From sequence record OR352954: a stretch of DNA of 64,000 nucleotides, one strand, 5' to 3'. The stretch's first letter is position 1; every line of letters starts with the position of its first letter. This document shows, piece by piece, positions 26,893-57,147 of this stretch. This DNA is from Escherichia phage AV124. A program made the translations under genes and the position numbers. Under the pieces are notes generated by a model. That model was not told where the DNA came from. It saw only the letters and a program-made list of their open reading frames with translations, and searched no databases.

Positions 26893-27114
26893 ATGAAAAT
26901 TGGTTTCTTAGGTCTTTTGGCGTTGGTATTTATCACGCTTAAACTGTGCGGCGTGATCGCCTGGTCTTGGTGGCTTGTTCTACTGCCGCTCTACTTCGGG
27001 TTGGCACTTGTTGTTAGTTTCGGGGTGGTTTTTGTTCTCGGAGCTTTCGGTGTATTCGCTGCTTCTGCGCTTATTGAAAAACTCAAATTCTGGAATAAAA
27101 AATCTGGAAAATAA
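26893..27114 (+). CDS. small two-helix membrane protein
   Basis: ORF track; mostly hydrophobic 73 aa. Confidence 0.35.
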   Translation: MKIGFLGLLALVFITLKLCGVIAWSWWLVLLPLYFGLALVVSFGVVFVLGAFGVFAASALIEKLKFWNKKSGK

Positions 27115-28713: not shown

Positions 28714-29141
28714 TAATGAAAAGATGTTCTAATTGTGGGGCTGAAAAGCCCCTTGAACAATTTCAGATCAGGAGGGCTTCTAAGGATGGATATACCGCAT
28801 CGTGCAAGATTTGTCTTAAGGAACGCGACCGAATCAGGGACCAAGATCCTGAACGTAAAGCAATGAAAGAACGATACGTTAAAGGTATCGGAAGAGAAGC
28901 GGCAGCACGAGCAAAGCGGAAGTATATCGAGAAGAATCCGAAGAAGAGATCTGTGCATATAAAAACAGGTAATGCGATCCGTGACGGCAAGATATTTAAA
29001 CAGCCTTGTGAAGTTTGCGGAAGTGAAAATGTACAAGCTCATCATTGTGATTACGATAAACCTTTAGAGGTTATGTGGCTATGTCCTATTCATCATGAAG
29101 AGTGGCACAGGCAATACGGCGAGGCAAAGAACGCTATATAA
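28710..29141 (+). CDS. HNH endonuclease (Cys-rich, zinc-binding type)
   Basis: 'CSNCG...CKIC' and 'CEVCGSENVQAHHCDYDKPLEVMWLCPIHHEEWH'. Confidence 0.65.
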   Translation: MIMKRCSNCGAEKPLEQFQIRRASKDGYTASCKICLKERDRIRDQDPERKAMKERYVKGIGREAAARAKRKYIEKNPKKRSVHIKTGNAIRDGKIFKQPCEVCGSENVQAHHCDYDKPLEVMWLCPIHHEEWHRQYGEAKNAI

Positions 29142-29147
29142 AAGAAA

Positions 29148-29172
29148 AGGCTCCCAAATGGGAGCCTTTTTT
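29148..29172. terminator. bidirectional intrinsic terminator between convergent gene blocks
   Basis: AAGGCTCCC-AAAT-GGGAGCCTT hairpin flanked by A-run on one side and T-run on the other. Confidence 0.6.
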
Positions 29173-29173
29173 A

Positions 29174-30934
29174 TTACGGTCTTTGATAGACAGCTACATC
29201 ATAGACAGTCCCTCTTCCACAATAGGTTACTTGTAGAATTGTAACTGAATTTGCAGTAGTGCTGATCGTACCACCATTTATGATTTTATAAGATGCATCA
29301 AGGGTGACGGCATGTCCGCCAGTTGCATCCTGGAACAGATAGATCGTGGCAGTAAAAGCACTACCAAGATTTGCCCAAGGCCCGATAGTTAAAGTATTTG
29401 TCACATCTACGTTGTAGATGTTATTCATCTTCGTCAGATCAGAGCCTGTCCCTCCTGGTGTCCAAGTTGTTCCTGCGGAAGGTGTGGTAACAGAACCAGG
29501 GGTTGTTCCTACAAAATTCGCAGTGACCTTAGGAGCCGTTGCTTCACCCGTAATAACGAGGGATGCACCTTTTAGAGACCCGTATGCCTCTATTGTGGTG
29601 GTTGCCAGAACGGAGTTAGGGTTAATGTCCTTCCCGTTGACATCAACAGAAACGCCCGTTAGAGTACCAAGTACGTTAAGATTGTTTACAGTTGTTGTGC
29701 CTGTCCCACCATTATTAAGGTTGGCGTTTCCAGTAACTGTAAGGTTGGTGCTTACCGTAGCTGCCCCAGTAACTGCAAGCAGGCCCGTGATGGAGAGGTT
29801 TCCTGCAACAGAGCTAGCACTACCGGCTGTAAATCCCCCAGTTAATGTGCTGTTTCCATCGACTGTTAATGAACTTACTACGCCTAAATTCTGAATAGAG
29901 GCACTTCCGAGAGTTGTTACACCGTTTACAGTTAGATCAGACCCTATCTCGGCTGTTGTCGTTGTGGCAATAGAGTTGGGGAGAATGTCTAAGCCATCAA
30001 CACCGACATTGACACCGGACAACGAACCCGTTACTCTTACGTTTTCAAGTTCTGTCGTTCCGGTTACCTTAAGTCTTGGTTCCGTAGAGGCCTTGGAAGA
30101 GTTCCCTCGGATATACACATAGTCGAAGGTGTTATTACCGACACCAGTTAATGACATTGTGGTGTTATCTGCACTAGCTGTCCCATTCACAATAACTGCG
30201 GAAGTCAGATTATTGGTTTGAACAGAGTTCGGAGATATGATAGTCTTCAGATAGTTAGAGGCAGCGGTGTAGTCAAAAGAAAGAGTGGCAGTTTGTCCAG
30301 ATAACGAAATTTTCTGGAATTTACCAAGCACACCAGAGGCATCAAGCGTCCCACCAAATTGGGATGTCCCAGAAACAACCAATGTGTTAAGGGTTGAAGC
30401 ACCAACCACCGTAAGAGCAGCATAACTTGGAGAAGACCCAGCAAGAGAATTGATCGCTGCTGCGACAGCCAAGTTGACAAATGCAGTTGTCGCTATTGCA
30501 CCACTATTACTTCCCTGAGCAGGGGTAGGCGCTGTCGGAGAACCGACAAATGCAGGGGTATTAAGAGGTGCAAATTTTTCAGAAACTACAACGGAGTCAT
30601 TATAAACTTTCCAAGCGGTGCTTGTGGACGGATCGGCAGGTAAAGTGATAGGTGTAGATGGTGACGCTCCTGGGGCATACCACCAGAAAGTCCCTGCTGA
30701 ATTGGTGAAGGAATACAGTTGATTAAAAACTGTCGCCTGTGTACCAGCCACCCAAGGTTGTGGTGGTGTTTTAAAATACACATTGTCAAGAAGCGCTTTA
30801 CGTAATGTTGGAATCGTGCTACCATCTTCTACAATAACAGTGTCGATCGCCGATCCGTTGACCACCTTATGGAGACGCTCAGAATCCTCGATAACCTGAT
30901 CCACAGCCTGTTCAAATTGTGTTGTATCAGCCAT
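29174..30934 (-). CDS. tail fibre protein (long, repeat-rich)
   Basis: 586 aa, Thr/Ser/Gly/Asn/Val-rich beta-repeat composition typical of fibre shafts; last gene of late block. Confidence 0.55.
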   Translation of the reverse strand: MADTTQFEQAVDQVIEDSERLHKVVNGSAIDTVIVEDGSTIPTLRKALLDNVYFKTPPQPWVAGTQATVFNQLYSFTNSAGTFWWYAPGASPSTPITLPADPSTSTAWKVYNDSVVVSEKFAPLNTPAFVGSPTAPTPAQGSNSGAIATTAFVNLAVAAAINSLAGSSPSYAALTVVGASTLNTLVVSGTSQFGGTLDASGVLGKFQKISLSGQTATLSFDYTAASNYLKTIISPNSVQTNNLTSAVIVNGTASADNTTMSLTGVGNNTFDYVYIRGNSSKASTEPRLKVTGTTELENVRVTGSLSGVNVGVDGLDILPNSIATTTTAEIGSDLTVNGVTTLGSASIQNLGVVSSLTVDGNSTLTGGFTAGSASSVAGNLSITGLLAVTGAATVSTNLTVTGNANLNNGGTGTTTVNNLNVLGTLTGVSVDVNGKDINPNSVLATTTIEAYGSLKGASLVITGEATAPKVTANFVGTTPGSVTTPSAGTTWTPGGTGSDLTKMNNIYNVDVTNTLTIGPWANLGSAFTATIYLFQDATGGHAVTLDASYKIINGGTISTTANSVTILQVTYCGRGTVYDVAVYQRP

Positions 30935-30945
30935 TTAAGGTCTCC

Positions 30946-31221
30946 TTATTTAATTTCTTGTTTATCTTCATCTTCCGCTGCCTTTATAGCTAAACCCCAG
31001 CGAAGTGAGATTAGCTTGCTTATAAGTTGTGGAGCTGCTACAGTAGGTGCATATACCCACATGTACCATTCTGTAAGGGTTCCTTTAAATCCCCAGTACA
31101 GGAAAACAGCCGTCATGGATGCCAGACCTATATTGCTCCAAAACTTGGTATGTGAGGCCTTATCAGGGTCTATAGGGGACCTGACTAAGTCCTTTAGGAA
31201 CTTCATTATTCGAGTTGGCAT
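30946..31221 (-). CDS. small membrane protein (holin-like?)
   Basis: ATG 31221 (MPTRIMKF...) within track ORF; hydrophobic 'IGLASMTAVFLYWGF'. Confidence 0.3.
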   Translation of the reverse strand: MPTRIMKFLKDLVRSPIDPDKASHTKFWSNIGLASMTAVFLYWGFKGTLTEWYMWVYAPTVAAPQLISKLISLRWGLAIKAAEDEDKQEIK

Positions 31222-31234
31222 TTTACCTCGGGGA

Positions 31235-31708
31235 TCAATGAGTGAAGAATGGTAATGCCCTGGCAATCACCAACAGGCTTATGACAGTTGCAGTTTTTAT
31301 CCATTCCTTTATCGTCGTGTCTTTAAAATTTGCACAAAGTATGATAATTTCCATCCAAGTTTGGTAGGAAGAATTTATTACAAAATCAAAGAGTCCGGGG
31401 ATTATTAACGGAAACTGCATGGATATTATCTGGCAGAAGAGAATTGGCACTGCTACAGAGAGTGTTAGCTTTTTCTTCCATCCCGATAATATACACGCAG
31501 CACCAAAGATAAAAGAGATATCTAGGAACCAACATAGATTAAGGTAAAGAGATAGATCGAAAAACTGGGTGTTTGAAGAAAACCACCATAGGAGGGTATT
31601 CTCAAGAAAGATATGGACCATGCCAAAAACAGACATGATCCTTATACCTTTGTCAGAATGAAACAACAAAATAATAAAGCACAGAAAATAGAATACTGAG
31701 CTTATCAT
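31235..31708 (-). CDS. polytopic membrane protein in an AT-rich segment
   Basis: 157 aa with at least 4 hydrophobic helices; local GC visibly lower than flanks. Confidence 0.4.
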   Translation of the reverse strand: MISSVFYFLCFIILLFHSDKGIRIMSVFGMVHIFLENTLLWWFSSNTQFFDLSLYLNLCWFLDISFIFGAACILSGWKKKLTLSVAVPILFCQIISMQFPLIIPGLFDFVINSSYQTWMEIIILCANFKDTTIKEWIKTATVISLLVIARALPFFTH

Positions 31709-32019
31709 TTTGCGGATCTTTCCATTAACATCTGGAATTGCTTGGTGAGGTCTGTTCTTAAATCACCAACATCTCCCTTGATGTCCCTTCTAAGATCGGA
31801 AACATCATCCCTAATCGCTTTTAGCTTTTTATCTAAGATATCATCCAGCTTTTCTTTAGTGACCATTTCGGCCCTTATACGGATGATATCTTTGTCAAGC
31901 TCATCAAGGCGCTCTTGAGTCTTTTTGTAATCCGAGTACGTTATTCTTAGGACTCCGATCAGGACAAAGGTAATAACCCCCCAGACCGCCTTCAGGATAG
32001 CAAACAGGTCAATAGACAT
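31705..32019 (-). CDS. membrane-anchored coiled-coil protein (i-spanin-like architecture)
   Basis: N-terminal TM 'LFAILKAVWGVITFVLIGVL' then charged heptad-like region. Confidence 0.35.
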   Translation of the reverse strand: MSIDLFAILKAVWGVITFVLIGVLRITYSDYKKTQERLDELDKDIIRIRAEMVTKEKLDDILDKKLKAIRDDVSDLRRDIKGDVGDLRTDLTKQFQMLMERSAK

Positions 32020-32028
32020 AGTGCCCCC

Positions 32029-32508
32029 TTAGGCTGTCTGCGGAAGCTCTGGTTGAGGGTCTCCCTTGGTCCATCCTCTGAGATCGATGATATATTTCTT
32101 CATTGTCTCAACCTTATCTTCTTCACCCAGTGCAGCGTAAGTTGATAGCAGTATCGCGGCCCTTTGGAAAAGTCCTTGTTTCTTATTTTCAAAGATTCTG
32201 TCTTCCATCCACTCCACTTTTTCGAACTCTTCACCGTTAAAGATATGAGTTCTATTAGAGAAATCACTTGGGAGAGAATCTACAAGACGAAAGTAACAAT
32301 CTTCCGGGAAGAATTTGGTCGGGTCCGTATCTGCCATATAGACCTGACCGTTAGAATCGTATTGAATATATAGGCCTTTTTGTTTTTCTTTTAATTGAGA
32401 TACAAAATCGTACCAATCTTGACCGTTCTCATCTTTTAGATATAAGGCGCCAGGAACCGCAACCTTTTCTGGAGAATATCTAACCCATTTCATATCAGTT
32501 ATTTTCAT
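32029..32508 (-). CDS. putative tail fibre assembly protein
   Basis: Start overlaps stop of upstream fibre gene (TAATG); position and size typical of Tfa chaperones. Confidence 0.35.
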   Translation of the reverse strand: MKITDMKWVRYSPEKVAVPGALYLKDENGQDWYDFVSQLKEKQKGLYIQYDSNGQVYMADTDPTKFFPEDCYFRLVDSLPSDFSNRTHIFNGEEFEKVEWMEDRIFENKKQGLFQRAAILLSTYAALGEEDKVETMKKYIIDLRGWTKGDPQPELPQTA

Positions 32509-33554
32509 TAAAGCCCCACTGTATACCAAATGCCATCAAGAGCTTTCTGTAAAAATCTGAACCTTATCTCATCAATGTCGTGAAGATAAACATCTCCGCT
32601 GGCGTTCGCATCAATCAGGCCAGTCAATACAGAGCCGTCAGGTCCACGCGCGAAACGTCCACCTGGACCATAATTCTCAAAATCAACGTTGACTTTGTTT
32701 TGTTCTCCACTCCAACGAATGTCAGAAACCCCAATACTGATATGAAGATCACCATTGGCATTTGCAGCGGTACTATTTACTGCACGAACAATGGATCTTC
32801 CACCAACGGTTGCGTTGTTGGAGTTTACTACGAGGTTTTGTAACGTAGCTGTACCACTAACACCAAGACTGGTTGTCTGAATATTACCACCATTATTAAT
32901 GGTTGTCGATGCTAAGGTTCCTGTAGTCATCGTACCTGTGGCTGTAATATTACCCTGGACCCTTAACAGCGCAGTGTTTGTACCAGTTGCATTAAGCTCC
33001 ATCATGTTGAATGGTGAAACTGTAGCAGAGTTGTTTACAGGAACAAAGCGGAACCTCATGATATCAACATTAGATTGTCCAGCTACACCCGGATTATCAC
33101 CAATTACAAAATCCAAATAGGTTTGGTCAGTACCTAAGGTGGTTGTGATGTGTGCAGTATCGCTTGCATCAGATGGGAAGGTAATACGCGGAACAGTCAA
33201 AGGACCTGTCATCGTGTCACCTTCAACATTCACATAACGATTATCCCCTTCAGCTTTACTATAGACCTCTAGATTAGTACGAGCTGTGGCCTTATTCTCC
33301 ACATCACTTAAGTTCTGGTCTTTTCTTAAATAATCGGCTGCCATACCAGGAATTTGCTCAGTGGAAATGTAAGACATCCACCAAGTCATCATGTTAAGAA
33401 CATAGTTAAGTTCTTCACAAGCGGGTTTCTCACCCAAATCCCAACCCTTATCCCAAAGATCAGCGATAGGGGAGATTTTATTTGCAGTATGAGCATTAGG
33501 TAACACGACGTCACTTTCAGCCCATATCTGAAGAGGAATAGTAGGAATTGCCAT
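32508..33554 (-). CDS. tail fibre protein
   Basis: 'GDNRYVNVEGDTMTGPL' motif typical of phage tail fibres; repetitive Thr/Asn/Gly shaft. Confidence 0.6.
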   Translation of the reverse strand: MAIPTIPLQIWAESDVVLPNAHTANKISPIADLWDKGWDLGEKPACEELNYVLNMMTWWMSYISTEQIPGMAADYLRKDQNLSDVENKATARTNLEVYSKAEGDNRYVNVEGDTMTGPLTVPRITFPSDASDTAHITTTLGTDQTYLDFVIGDNPGVAGQSNVDIMRFRFVPVNNSATVSPFNMMELNATGTNTALLRVQGNITATGTMTTGTLASTTINNGGNIQTTSLGVSGTATLQNLVVNSNNATVGGRSIVRAVNSTAANANGDLHISIGVSDIRWSGEQNKVNVDFENYGPGGRFARGPDGSVLTGLIDANASGDVYLHDIDEIRFRFLQKALDGIWYTVGL

Positions 33555-33563
33555 GATTCTCCC

Positions 33564-34193
33564 TTATAATAGTGTGTTCTCTTCTTCGGAGGTATAGATA
33601 AGACTGGATAGGCCACCAGGCCCTGTTCGCGATGTGCTTACAGACCCAAAACCAATTGCATAGGAATCGTTTTTAAACCCAAAAGGTAGCCCTTCTGATT
33701 TTACCAGTCGAAGGTACGTAGGCATAGGGAGCATATCTTTTATTTCTTGTATAGCTGTTTCTATCTCGAAACAGCTATTAAAGATATTGATATCAAAACG
33801 ATAATTATCACCTTTGTAAGTGGTAAAATTCTCGGCTCCGAAGAGTTGCTTCAGCGTCCCAATTACCTCAGGCCTGGTCCCGTGTTTAGCTGTGCTTGAG
33901 AGCAGGATTGTGATAATGGCACGATAATTCATATCACTCAAGCCATTTCTGTCAATTCCCACTTGAGCACCAATCTCATCCAAGTTGACTCCTCCGGCAT
34001 TCTGGAGGAGACGCCCTTCTGCAAGATTGACCATCATCTCATCTACAGCCTTCATTCGTTCCAGATACACGGATAAAAATTTTACAAGGTTTTCTTTTTC
34101 CCGTAAAAAGTCCCCCGGCAGGTAGTCAATACCGTCCGAAACGAAATCATCCAATGGATGGATGTGGTTGACATCTTTTATCGTATCTGCCAT
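33564..34193 (-). CDS. baseplate protein (gpI/XkdU-like position)
   Basis: Position between baseplate J-like gene and tail fibre. Confidence 0.35.
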   Translation of the reverse strand: MADTIKDVNHIHPLDDFVSDGIDYLPGDFLREKENLVKFLSVYLERMKAVDEMMVNLAEGRLLQNAGGVNLDEIGAQVGIDRNGLSDMNYRAIITILLSSTAKHGTRPEVIGTLKQLFGAENFTTYKGDNYRFDINIFNSCFEIETAIQEIKDMLPMPTYLRLVKSEGLPFGFKNDSYAIGFGSVSTSRTGPGGLSSLIYTSEEENTLL

Positions 34194-34201
34194 AATCCCT
34201 C

Positions 34202-35695
34202 TTAGATTATCTGTAGGAATGTAATATTATCAGTGTCGATAGAGAATACCTCATCCATCCCTGCAACAACATCAGAGGTTGTATAGGAAGTATCAGGATC
34301 TCCGACGTTCTTGACATCCACATAAAGTTGTGTAAATCTACCAGCAGAGATAGAAGAACCTACAGCAGATACAAGCTGGATGTTGTATAAAGTGTCAGCA
34401 ATGTTAAGCGGGTCAATAACACCTTTGAGGGCGGACTTTATAGTATCCTGTTCAGTGGTTGAGAGGACCTTTCCTTTATAACGGACACGGATAGCCAAAT
34501 CCCGTGCCTGTGCTTTACTGTGATAAATTCGTTCTGTCTGATTATCCTCAGTAGGGACATCATAAAAAACATTACCATAGGTAGCGTTAGACAAAGCAAT
34601 TGAATTATAAAGTGCCTTGCTAATATCTTCAGTAGACCCACCATACACCACGGTCTCAAACTTGTACGGTGGTATTCCATTCTGGTCTGTAGTCCCTGTG
34701 TTATTTGAGAAGATTTTAACCTTACTTACACCACTCACCCCAAGGACAGCACTCACCACCGCAGGTCTGGTCGCAGCCGCACTCGATGCTGTTGTGTTAG
34801 AAGCCCTGACCTTGTATTCGGTGTCGGTCTCAACATCTGTACCCTCTGTGAAGGCATTCATGTTGTTAAGGCTGATGAACCCACCCGGTGTTGGGGAAAT
34901 CGAGGTTACGGTGTTTTTCTCTCTCGACAGTTCACCTGCCTCAACAGCAACAACATCCATTGTGATTGTACGTTCACCAACAATTGGTGATGTCCTGAAA
35001 TCAACACGGCTATTAAGGCCGATCATTTCAAGATTAGTATCATACCCAATGTACAATGCCCCGTTTTGAGAGTCAATGATGATCCTATCATTATTAAGCT
35101 CGGAGGTATTGTTGACAATAAAGCTCTTGACAGAGGCCATGAAAGTGTTAAGCTGAGAGCTATTAGGTGTTTTATTGGTCAACTGAAGAGTTGTTTGACT
35201 TGTGGTTCCGGTGTTTTGATTATTGATCTGGAAACTATAAGTACCTACAACCCAGTCCTTATTGAGAATTTTTTGTGCCAGTATGTTACCTGCAAGGGTG
35301 GTGTCGTCATTTAATACAAATGTACCACTATCAAGTGTGTATGTGTTTTGGGCATATACCATGTTGTAAGGGACAGTATTATTAACTGTCATCTCAACAG
35401 ATCCTGAACTTTTTGTCTTCCCTCGACGATAAACACCTCTTCGGGAAAGCAGCTCATCAAGATAAATCCCCTCAGCCCCTGCAAGGGTCTGAGCCGAATA
35501 AACTGACGCTGCCAGAAGGATAATCTGATATTCCCTTTCGTTGAAAATTGTTGTCAACTTGTCAGCAATTGTGTTAGTTTGCGTGTTGAAATTTTCACCA
35601 AAAGTTCTAATGAGGGTCTGTTTTGTGTCTGCGATAAGGTCATCAAGAGAGGGGATAGTGAAACCGTAATCGCTCAATCCATATTGAGTTGCCAA
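34202..35695 (-). CDS. baseplate wedge protein, gpJ/gp6-like
   Basis: 497 aa; position and size consistent with Baseplate_J family. Confidence 0.45.
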   Translation of the reverse strand: MATQYGLSDYGFTIPSLDDLIADTKQTLIRTFGENFNTQTNTIADKLTTIFNEREYQIILLAASVYSAQTLAGAEGIYLDELLSRRGVYRRGKTKSSGSVEMTVNNTVPYNMVYAQNTYTLDSGTFVLNDDTTLAGNILAQKILNKDWVVGTYSFQINNQNTGTTSQTTLQLTNKTPNSSQLNTFMASVKSFIVNNTSELNNDRIIIDSQNGALYIGYDTNLEMIGLNSRVDFRTSPIVGERTITMDVVAVEAGELSREKNTVTSISPTPGGFISLNNMNAFTEGTDVETDTEYKVRASNTTASSAAATRPAVVSAVLGVSGVSKVKIFSNNTGTTDQNGIPPYKFETVVYGGSTEDISKALYNSIALSNATYGNVFYDVPTEDNQTERIYHSKAQARDLAIRVRYKGKVLSTTEQDTIKSALKGVIDPLNIADTLYNIQLVSAVGSSISAGRFTQLYVDVKNVGDPDTSYTTSDVVAGMDEVFSIDTDNITFLQII

Positions 35696-35787: not shown

Positions 35788-35807
35788 AACCACCCCGAAG
35801 GGTGGTT
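35788..35807 (-). terminator. intrinsic terminator (minus strand)
   Basis: AACCACCC-CGAA-GGGTGGTT hairpin overlapping stop of upstream gene, followed on minus strand by TTTTTT. Confidence 0.5.
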
Positions 35808-56748: not shown

Positions 56749-57147
56749 ATGAAAGCAGTAATAGCCGGTGTTATCACAGCCATCGTTGTCTCGGGTGGAC
56801 TTATCTACTTTATGAAAACCAACCCCAATATGAACAAATTCGACGATGTTTCTTCAAGCTGGTTGTCGGCTGAAGAAAAAACAGAGGCCATTCATCGGAT
56901 TGCTGGGATGAAATGCGATACAGAATTCAGAAAGGCATTCATTCCCGGCACTCTGACGACGCAGACAGGTATGTTAGATGAGATGGAAGAACAAGAAGAT
57001 AGTTTCCAAGTAATGAGAAATATGGGGATAGTGAACGGTACTGTTCTTGCAACAGGAACTTACATCTGTAAATATTATAAGGATGGCCGACAACCTTATC
57101 TTCAGGTATCTTTGAAACCGGAGGCGAGACCGCTACTAAAAAAATAA
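56749..57147 (+). CDS. membrane-anchored protein encoded opposite to the structural operon (moron)
   Basis: ATG 56749 after GAGGAG SD; N-terminal TM 'AVIAGVITAIVVSGGLIYF'; own promoter and terminator. Confidence 0.5.
   Translation: MKAVIAGVITAIVVSGGLIYFMKTNPNMNKFDDVSSSWLSAEEKTEAIHRIAGMKCDTEFRKAFIPGTLTTQTGMLDEMEEQEDSFQVMRNMGIVNGTVLATGTYICKYYKDGRQPYLQVSLKPEARPLLKK

Follow-up and report, generated by a model that had tools for sequence, protein, structure and literature searches.

The holin of the rV5-like and phi92-like myoviruses has been elusive. In rV5, PVP-SE1, and CB7, the spanin genes stand beside the terminase gene, and the holin was found "difficult to identify" (PMC7344957). For rV5, gp129 was proposed as the holin on the basis of topology alone (PMC3606486). 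Nor was a holin found in a PVP-SE1-like phage (PMC11358711), and only topology-based guesses were offered for a phi92-like phage (PMC12210895). Papers on rV5, PVP-SE1-like phages, Certrevirus, and phi92-like phages have all left the holin without an identification (PMC3606486; PMC11358711; PMC7344957; PMC12210895). Here, we consider three adjacent genes in a stretch of 64,000 nucleotides (the window) from Escherichia phage AV124 (sequence record OR352954). These lie among tail fiber genes and encode predicted membrane proteins of 104, 157, and 91 amino acids, called m104, m157, and m91 (together, the trio). Judged by their relatives, m91 and m104 appear to be the best candidates so far for the holin of this phage group.

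Several described systems invite comparison. The lysis genes of phage T4 are dispersed, and its holin gene t lies directly downstream of the tail fiber genes 37 and 38. In class II holins and pinholins (for example, S21 68), a small protein has two transmembrane (TM) helices. The lysis cassette of phage P2 includes LysA, a polytopic membrane protein that affects the timing of lysis.

Phage Mu has a releasin, gp25. This is a protein of 99 amino acids with four periplasmic residues and N-out/C-in topology, and is a member of DUF2730 (PF10805); soluble endolysins, too, accompany many DUF2730 proteins (PMC9239132). As described below, it is in the lysis cassettes of Mu-like phages that relatives of m91 and m104 are found.

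Relatives of m91 and m104 in Mu-like lysis cassettes

The m91 gene product matches PHROG 1322 (E = 9.8e-32; residues 19-103 of a 106-amino-acid open reading frame [ORF], profile positions 2-85 of 87), a family annotated only as "membrane protein." The protein has a basic amphipathic helix at its N-terminus and the conserved motif SHTK-F/L-W-x-N; its two helices (residues 24-45 and 51-~73) are of weak hydrophobicity and rich in Gly, Ala, and Ser, and its C-terminus is acidic. AlphaFold2 models it as a hairpin (24-45 and 51-90) with a predicted local distance difference test score (pLDDT) of 64, and its counterpart in PVP-SE1, gp42, is annotated with one TM segment. It is predicted to be a small integral membrane protein folded as a helical hairpin. 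An earlier reading of the letters of the window, here called the original prediction, had listed a "small hydrophobic protein" at this place; the ORF and the predicted hairpin agree with that description, but the hydrophobicity is only moderate, as no 19-residue window reaches a Kyte-Doolittle value of 1.3. A dual-start motif was also considered. Met1 and Met6 are both present here, but Met6 is not conserved in relatives, and the idea was dropped.

The alignment of the m91 family is free of gaps. Its members share an amphipathic N-terminus, the two Gly/Ala/Ser-rich helices, and, where helix 1 begins, an invariant S-x-T-K-x-W. A distant tblastn match of m91 is found in the Pseudomonas phage Bise, a Mu-like phage of 38 kb. 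Here, a protein of 80 amino acids matches PHROG 1322 (E = 1e-19) and aligns with m91 without gaps around S-x-T-K-x-W. Its gene is flanked by those for an M15-peptidase endolysin and an Rz-like protein, just past Mor and ahead of the terminase. In Ralstonia phage RS138, an endolysin gene, a PHROG 1322 gene, and an Rz-like spanin gene follow one another in that order, and no other holin is annotated anywhere in the RS138 genome.

These are not isolated cases. A motif-based genome scan, which used a 5-member alignment of the m91 family as its query, found the PHROG 1322 family in 8 betaproteobacterial prophages and 51 IMG/VR contigs. At about 30 Mu-like loci, chosen for carrying PHROG 1322 (Bise, RS138, the 8 prophages, and ~20 of the IMG/VR contigs), the m91-type gene begins at or overlaps the stop codon of the endolysin gene; Rz comes next, with the gene for the lipoprotein Rz1 embedded in it. 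The endolysins encoded 5' of it are of five families (M15/VanY at 11 loci, phrog_873-type at 7, Amidase_2 at 7, lambda-R-like phrog_90 at 4, and phrog_894 at 1). All five are without N-terminal membrane segments, which means that a holin should be needed. Further, that the m91-type gene remains constant while the class of endolysin beside it is swapped is the classical genomic signature of a holin.

Two variants of the family may be recorded here. In Stenotrophomonas phage Marzo (L013:3423-3734) and Acidovorax phage ACP17 (L014:3414-3851), which represent the T4-like Menderavirus and Busanvirus, the PHROG 1322-type protein has an extra N-terminal TM segment.

The second member of the trio, m104, has a quite different architecture. 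Four N-terminal residues are followed by one TM segment (residues ~5-24; the hydrophobic segment, residues 5-23, has a mean Kyte-Doolittle value of 2.35) and then by a charged amphipathic helix of 80 residues, which is 49% charged, free of proline, and periodic in the manner of an amphipathic helix. The original prediction had described a "TM plus coiled-coil protein." The N-terminal TM is indeed strong. The coiled coil, however, is marginal by the test of strict 3.5-residue (heptad) periodicity (p = 0.07), and "coiled-coil-like" would be a fairer term. Basic residues follow the TM (R25, K32, and K33), and the positive-inside rule therefore predicts an N-out/C-in topology, with the helix in the cytoplasm.

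m104 matches PHROG 5345 (E = 2.5e-49). About half of the Mu-like loci have, after a gene for a TraR-like zinc-finger protein, a gene for a protein of 75-115 amino acids that also combines an N-terminal TM with a charged helix (phrog_462). When the m104 family is compared with this family by hhalign, the score is 94.4% (E = 9e-8) over 74 columns that span both the TM and the helix. As a control, the same comparison with an alignment of Rz i-spanins, which also have a TM and a coiled coil, gives 0.5%. In an independent PHROG scan, the Mu-like member at locus L022 matches phrog_5345 (E = 4e-4). Further, gp149 of phi92, encoded after the phi92 fiber chaperone, matches both phrog_462 (E = 4e-5) and phrog_5345 (E = 2e-3). 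By these profile comparisons, m104 is homologous to the TM-plus-helix proteins of Mu-like lysis cassettes.

Those Mu-like cassettes that are without an N-terminal TM-plus-helix protein have something else at the same position after the TraR-like gene. This is a protein of 73-87 amino acids with a coiled coil and a C-terminal Gly-rich TM (phrog_1103; L019:5390-5620 and L012:4023-4244). It may be an alternative partner or an alternative holin.

The proposed holin module

What, then, is known of the lysis genes of this phage type? By its relatives, the window is that of a Klebsiella Mydovirus, an rV5-like myovirus of the subfamily Vequintavirinae. Klebsiella phage vB_KpnM_NDO71 matches it at 99.2% identity, and ~30 other Mydovirus genomes at 94-96%. 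In KpS8, a near-identical relative, an Rz-like spanin pair adjoins the large terminase gene, while the endolysin gene is ~70 kb away among plus-strand genes; the statement in the original prediction that no endolysin is adjacent to the trio is therefore correct. The Mydovirus endolysin is of the GH19 type. That of KpS8 (gp200) has no hydrophobic N-terminus and hence is of the soluble type, without a signal-arrest-release (SAR) domain. The two ORFs upstream of the Mydovirus endolysin encode soluble proteins, so no holin is found there, and none is annotated in KpS8.

Several lines of evidence come together: the homologs of m91 and m104 in lysis cassettes, a soluble endolysin that must have a holin somewhere, and an operon that is presumably late and resembles in this the setting of T4 t. 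These lead us to read the trio as a holin module. We would give about an even chance to the proposition that the three genes, an ancient and conserved inner-membrane module of this phage group, are a dispersed holin module with accessory proteins. Within it, m91 is most likely the hole-former. The lysis function suggested in the original prediction thus gains support as far as m91 and m104 are concerned, as their homologs lie inside Mu-like lysis cassettes; its spanin part does not survive, for reasons given below.

The module would work as follows. The trio would be co-transcribed late with the tail fiber genes and, by making the cytoplasmic membrane permeable, would determine when lysis occurs. 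As a two-helix hairpin with both termini in the cytoplasm (N-in/C-in), m91 would form holes through which the soluble endolysin, of the GH19 type, could gain access to the cell wall. The outer membrane would then be disrupted by the spanin pair encoded beside the terminase. m104 would act with the holin or regulate it, in the manner of an antiholin or of a releasin, and m157 would be a lineage-specific accessory that may tune the timing. What the sequence shows directly is the genes and their operon, their conservation and selection, the homology of m91 and m104 to genes of Mu-like lysis cassettes, and the amino acid source of the low GC content; that holes form, which topologies the proteins adopt, how the roles are divided, and that expression is late, we infer from sequence and gene context.

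How does such a module compare with the systems introduced above? The Mu-like cassettes (RS138 ORF26-30 and Bise) share the PHROG 1322 protein and, at about half of the loci, the phrog_462 TM-plus-helix protein; there, too, the m91- and m104-type genes would be expressed from a late operon. However, the Mu-like genes lie between the endolysin gene and Rz/Rz1, while those in the window lie among tail fiber genes, ~70 kb from the endolysin gene. Mu-like cassettes also have no counterpart of m157, and the roles of their genes, too, are assigned from sequence.

The likeness to T4 is one of arrangement. As is proposed for m91, the T4 holin gene stands at the end of a late tail fiber unit, with endolysin and spanin genes elsewhere, and the rV5-like phages, as T4, carry rIIA and rIIB. 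But the T4 holin T has no sequence similarity to m91, and has one TM and a large periplasmic domain instead of the two-helix hairpin predicted for m91.

The likeness of m104 to Mu gp25 is one of architecture: about four periplasmic residues, an N-terminal TM, a helical domain of ~75-80 residues predicted to be cytoplasmic, and a basic residue at the membrane boundary. The Mu-like relatives of m104 also occupy the same cassette position as gp25, after the TraR-like gene. The architecture therefore fits, but membership of m104 in DUF2730 is not supported by its sequence. It has no match to PF10805 at E = 0.1, and hhalign against gp25 gives 1.5%, which is not significant (a search of IMG/VR for diverse DUF2730 proteins gave near-identical copies of Mu only). 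Further, gp25 falls in phrog_736, not in phrog_462 or phrog_5345, and the Mydovirus endolysin has no SAR domain that might be released.

As for the proteins of the S21 68 type, m91 shares with them its small size, two helices, a predicted N-in/C-in topology, weak hydrophobicity, and richness in Gly, Ala, and Ser. It differs in having no detectable homology to them, a basic N-terminal region of 26 residues, and an acidic C-terminus. Because the endolysins cognate to m91 are soluble, pinholes would not be enough.

Last, m157 resembles P2 LysA as a small polytopic protein next to holin-type genes. This is an analogy only, with no sequence link, and a LysA-like role for m157 in the timing of lysis is a guess. 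Both PF26221/PHROG 7451, to which m157 belongs, and DUF2644, to which some m91 relatives give sub-threshold matches, are families of unknown function; m91 itself has no DUF2644 match even at E = 10, and no mention of PF26221 or DUF2644 was found in the papers searched.

A broader proposition may be put forward tentatively. PHROG 1322 (DUF2644-like) and the TM-plus-helix proteins of phrog_462, phrog_5345, and phrog_15210 would be an unrecognized two-component holin system, a holin with an antiholin or releasin-like partner, that is common to transposable Mu-like phages and to virulent myoviruses of the rV5, phi92, and Plateaulake types. In the myoviruses, it would have moved into the tail fiber operon and been joined by a third, polytopic subunit (Phage_phiTE_239). 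We regard this as possible but doubtful.

Several facts weigh against a holin module. Here, the endolysin and spanin genes lie away from the trio, which in three myovirus lineages is always found among fiber genes, a pattern that fits a role in fiber assembly as well. The helices of m91 are weakly hydrophobic and its AlphaFold2 model is of low confidence, and its C-terminus is acidic, whereas those of classical holins are basic. The curated holin families of Pfam, NCBIfam, and PHROG give no match to any member of the trio. More generally, scans of the three proteins against Pfam (in a copy without the PF26221 model), NCBIfam, and PADLOC gave nothing meaningful, and what PADLOC returned was weak coiled-coil and hydrophobic noise. 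The selection of the Mu-like loci by PHROG 1322 also means that their context statistics describe the family, not its necessity. Since a second small membrane protein is present in the Mu-like cassettes (phrog_462 or phrog_1103) and could be the true holin, the division of roles is uncertain. Some records label m91 homologs of the phi92 type "structural protein," and the paper on rV5 made its own holin proposal, the gp129 already mentioned.

The window also holds a rival candidate. A 73-amino-acid ORF at 26893..27114 on the plus strand (EKLKFWNKKSGK) has three strongly hydrophobic segments and a basic C-terminus, features that, as predicted, are those of a classical class I holin. It matches phrog_1374 (E = 1e-21), and ends a plus-strand block of genes that converges on the fiber operon.

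Operon, conservation, and rival explanations

All three ORFs lie on the minus strand at the coordinates originally predicted for them, and the flanking genes are as had been predicted, a fiber assembly gene upstream and the larger tail fiber gene downstream (Table 1). The trio is part of an eight-gene minus-strand operon of baseplate and fiber genes with one terminator on either side. Its genes overlap or are closely spaced; the ATG of m157 overlaps the stop codon of m104 as ATGA, and the start of m91 is preceded by a GAGG Shine-Dalgarno sequence. The fiber assembly gene bears the same annotation in relatives, and phage Mydo has an annotated bidirectional terminator at the site equivalent to that which closes the operon.

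Table 1. The operon that contains the trio, with its flanking terminators; positions are those of the window.
Feature	Coordinates	Strand	Description
Intrinsic terminator	35788..35807	-	5' of the operon; ends the preceding transcription unit
Baseplate protein (209 amino acids) and Baseplate_J-like wedge subunit (497 amino acids)	33564..35695	-	First two genes of the operon; PHROG 4056 and PHROG 6; Pfam Baseplate_J, E = 1e-12
Tail fiber gene (348 amino acids)	32508..33554	-	PHROG 4465, E = 3e-138
Tail fiber assembly (chaperone, tfa) gene	32029..32508	-	PHROG 136, E = 9e-29; directly 5' of m104
m104	31705..32019	-	104 amino acids; PHROG 5345; proposed holin accessory or regulator
m157	31235..31708	-	157 amino acids; PHROG 7451, Pfam PF26221; polytopic, six predicted helices
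m91	30946..31221	-	91 amino acids; PHROG 1322; proposed holin
Tail fiber gene (586 amino acids)	29174..30934	-	PHROG 4549, E = 6e-209; directly 3' of m91, last in the operon
Intrinsic terminator	29145..29170	-	11-bp stem with 6 GC pairs, T tract; closes the operon

A search for internal signals within the operon found no convincing promoter or terminator that m157 or the trio might have as its own. One hairpin inside m157 (31641..31615) was considered as a terminator; it is weak and lies within coding sequence, and was treated as a chance occurrence. From the operon shared with the baseplate and fiber genes, we infer that the trio is expressed late.

Two other genes of the window may be mentioned. 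Just past the operon terminator is a gene for a 141-amino-acid HNH-type endonuclease (28716..29141, plus strand; motif CPIHHEEWH). It is present in the window, NDO71, KNP2, and some others, and absent from KpS8, Mydo, and KB57, whose alignments begin 119-141 bases later; it looks like a mobile homing-endonuclease insertion. In addition, a lone gene for a membrane protein of 132 amino acids (phrog_11434; 56749..57147, plus strand) stands amid minus-strand genes for head and tail structural proteins.

The trio is widespread. By tblastn against 50,697 phage records, homologs of m91 are found in 375 records (all genera of the Vequintavirinae, the phi92- and phAPEC8-like Stephanstirmvirinae, the Aeromonas Plateaulakevirus, and others), and homologs of m104 in 222, including ORF31 of rV5. 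Those of m157 are found in 106 records from Mydo-, Seuna-, Certre-, Avuna-, and Henunavirus. They are absent from rV5, where a gene for a 347-amino-acid fiber fills the m157 slot. The complete trio is common to all Mydovirus relatives, four other genera of Vequintavirinae, and the Aeromonas Plateaulakevirus. In PVP-SE1, the same trio is gp44, gp43, and gp42, annotated in 2011 as membrane proteins. A remote metagenomic relative has the order chaperone, 106 amino acids, 145 amino acids, 82 amino acids, fiber. At the 21 large-myovirus loci from the motif-based scan, an m157-type protein is encoded upstream of the m91-type gene, usually with a fiber gene downstream. In the T4-like Menderavirus and Busanvirus, the m91-type gene stands solo and divergently transcribed between the DNA polymerase gene and dUTPase/regA; this is a third genomic context of the PHROG 1322 family.

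Some of the records searched are themselves peculiar. About 20 records (135-143 kb) bear the name "Campylobacter phage," and their rV5-type sequences are identical to ones in E. coli phages; NCBI proteins labeled Staphylococcus haemolyticus come from 148-kb contigs that resemble those of Cronobacter phages. Both sets are probably mislabeled or contaminated.

All three genes are under purifying selection. Compared with Raoultella phage Ro1, the ratio of nonsynonymous to synonymous substitution rates (dN/dS) is 0.12 for m157 and 0.03 for m104 (0.03-0.05 over the comparisons made), while m91 has 0 nonsynonymous and 9 synonymous changes. Throughout Mydovirus, m91 is 100% identical, whereas the fibers vary. 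The wide distribution and the purifying selection together show that the trio is an old core feature, with only the m157 slot variable over deep time. The strength of the selection, with m91 constant while the fibers vary, also counts in favor of the holin module.

One rival explanation is that the three proteins are membrane-anchored helpers in the assembly of the tail fiber or baseplate, or minor components of the virion, and that their place in the fiber operon reflects an action on fibers. We consider this unlikely, although several observations favor it. The order tfa, m104, (m157), m91, fiber is invariant over the genera of Vequintavirinae, Plateaulakevirus, and the remote metagenomic relative, and m104 always follows the fiber assembly chaperone, in phi92 and phAPEC8 as well. 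The synonymous divergence (dS) from KpS8 and Mydo is 0.52 for m104 and 0.01-0.02 for m157 and m91. This contrast indicates a recombination breakpoint at the m104/m157 boundary (31705-31710), and suggests that m104 travels with the chaperone and fiber on its own side, and m157 and m91 with the 586-amino-acid fiber on the other. Homologs of rV5 ORF31 are labeled "tail fiber protein" in some records, as phi92-type m91 homologs are labeled "structural protein."

But these labels are given without stated evidence. Homologs of m91 and m104 stand in the endolysin-Rz cassettes of Mu-like siphophages and prophages, far from tail genes, and in Menderavirus and Busanvirus the m91-type gene stands solo beside the DNA polymerase. 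Further, the gene that adjoins m91 is a fiber gene in Mydovirus, a baseplate wedge gene in phi92, and an HNH-like gene in Plateaulakevirus; that the neighbor differs by lineage counts against a role tied to one particular fiber. Integral membrane segments would also be unusual in fiber chaperones.

A second explanation holds that the trio acts in superinfection exclusion, receptor masking, or host-surface modification, like T5 llp, the cor genes, or T4 imm and sp. This was among the functions originally suggested. In its favor, the genes encode membrane proteins and adjoin the genes for receptor-binding proteins. The m91 homologs of Menderavirus and Busanvirus lie near the DNA polymerase gene, and it is in the region near DNA polymerase that T4 carries imm. 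The acidic residues conserved within the membrane in m157 (below) could also suit a transporter-like or enzyme-like role. On the other side, the trio includes no lipoprotein or signal peptide, the PADLOC, Pfam, and NCBIfam scans offer no meaningful match, and the genes belong to a presumably late operon with no promoter of their own. The family is conserved over hosts with unrelated receptors (Klebsiella, Aeromonas, Pseudomonas, and Ralstonia), m91 is invariant while the fibers diverge, and the Mu-like context is a lysis cassette. An exclusion role is, on balance, quite improbable.

The remaining question concerns origin, and here m157 is the gene of interest. That it is polytopic, as originally described, is supported both by several hydrophobic windows and by an AlphaFold2 model with six helices (pLDDT 82). 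Its conserved intramembrane acidic or polar residues are E36, D51, D63, and E120. It matches PHROG 7451 over its full length (E = 5e-79), and all 34 clusters of m157 homologs, one of them 96% identical, carry the label PF26221 (Phage_phiTE_239). When 1.84 billion representatives were searched exhaustively with a hidden Markov model of the m157 alignment, only 14 relatives emerged; except for a single repetitive hydrophobic match, each was this small phage protein. Fold searches gave generic helix bundles only. The family is thus an orphan restricted to these phages. rV5 does without it, and we treat m157 as a lineage-specific accessory.

In Aeromonas phage 2L372D, an unannotated ORF for a polytopic protein of 146 amino acids lies between the m104-like and m91-like genes (MK804893.1 43525..43965, minus strand; L009:3520-3960), and is a distant homolog of m157. 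The same exhaustive search found two proteins of 146 amino acids at E of about 1e-12, which are presumably of the 2L372D type; the 18 sequences of its query alignment included the 2L372D ORF itself.

One further observation concerns the nearest relative of the window. In NDO71 (locus L002), one extra T in a T5 run of m157 (window 31564-31568) causes a frameshift, and the annotation of NDO71 splits the gene into a 123-amino-acid ORF and a spurious ORF on the opposite strand. The extra T may be a sequencing error in the homopolymer, or it may truly inactivate the gene. The copy in the window is intact.

The original prediction drew attention to a low GC content over m157 and took it to suggest horizontal acquisition of an AT-rich insertion. 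The dip itself is real. The GC content of m157 is 36.5%, compared with 45.2% for the window as a whole; this is the lowest of 71 crudely called genes (z = -2.9), and only 0.1% of equal-sized stretches of the window are as low. By codon position, however, the values are 0.34 at the first (GC1), 0.34 at the second (GC2), and 0.418 at the third (GC3). The GC3 of m157 ranks 32 of 71 (z = -0.3), and is above that of the flanking fiber genes. From its amino acid sequence and the codon usage of the window, m157 is predicted to have a GC content of 38.9%; the residual, -2.4 points, matches those of its neighbors (-1.7 to -3.7). As the deficit is confined to the first two codon positions while GC3 is ordinary, the dip reflects an abundance of Phe, Ile, Leu, Asn, and Lys in the protein, and is not a signature of transfer.

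Thus, the view that m157 or the entire trio is a recently acquired foreign insertion (a moron) is already contradicted by the data, and we regard it as very improbable. Its support, beyond the GC rank, is that m157 comes from a tiny orphan family, and that its slot, filled by a fiber gene in rV5, has varied over deep evolutionary time. But amino acid composition explains the GC deficit, and none of the 33 Mydovirus records is without m157, which also occurs in Seuna-, Certre-, Avuna-, Henuna-, and Plateaulakevirus. The gene begins in overlap with the stop codon of m104, evolves under purifying selection, and brings with it neither promoter nor terminator. What had been described as an AT-rich insertion among the fiber genes is instead an old, conserved cassette. 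The case also carries a caution: a sharp GC dip over the gene for a membrane protein can stem wholly from amino acid composition, and is then not evidence of transfer.

That m104 is an Rz-like inner-membrane spanin subunit is scarcely credible: it does have an N-terminal TM followed by a long charged helix, and phi92 gp149 weakly matches an Rz-like PHROG (E = 9e-4), but a separate spanin pair stands beside the terminase in Mydovirus as in rV5, PVP-SE1, and CB7, the coding strand from 30880 to 32560 has no lipobox ORF that might encode a lipoprotein partner, the hhalign control finds no profile similarity to Rz, and the distribution of charge predicts a helix in the cytoplasm.

Implications for rV5-like and phi92-like phages

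The rV5-like and phi92-like myoviruses (Vequintavirinae and Stephanstirmvirinae) are among the commonest phages isolated on enterobacteria, and are widely used as candidates for therapy. From 2011 to 2025, papers have repeatedly stated that their holin cannot be found. Should the two-component holin system proposed above be real, it would put a name to the holin so long sought in this major group of therapeutic phages. With m91 and m104 as concrete candidates, it becomes possible to test directly how lysis is timed and controlled in these phages.

The same reading would give a function to PHROG 1322, a family of small proteins found in hundreds of phages and Mu-like prophages, some of which have soluble endolysins. 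It would also bear on a question that arises from the work on the Mu releasin, which is how Mu-like phages of this kind release their endolysins.

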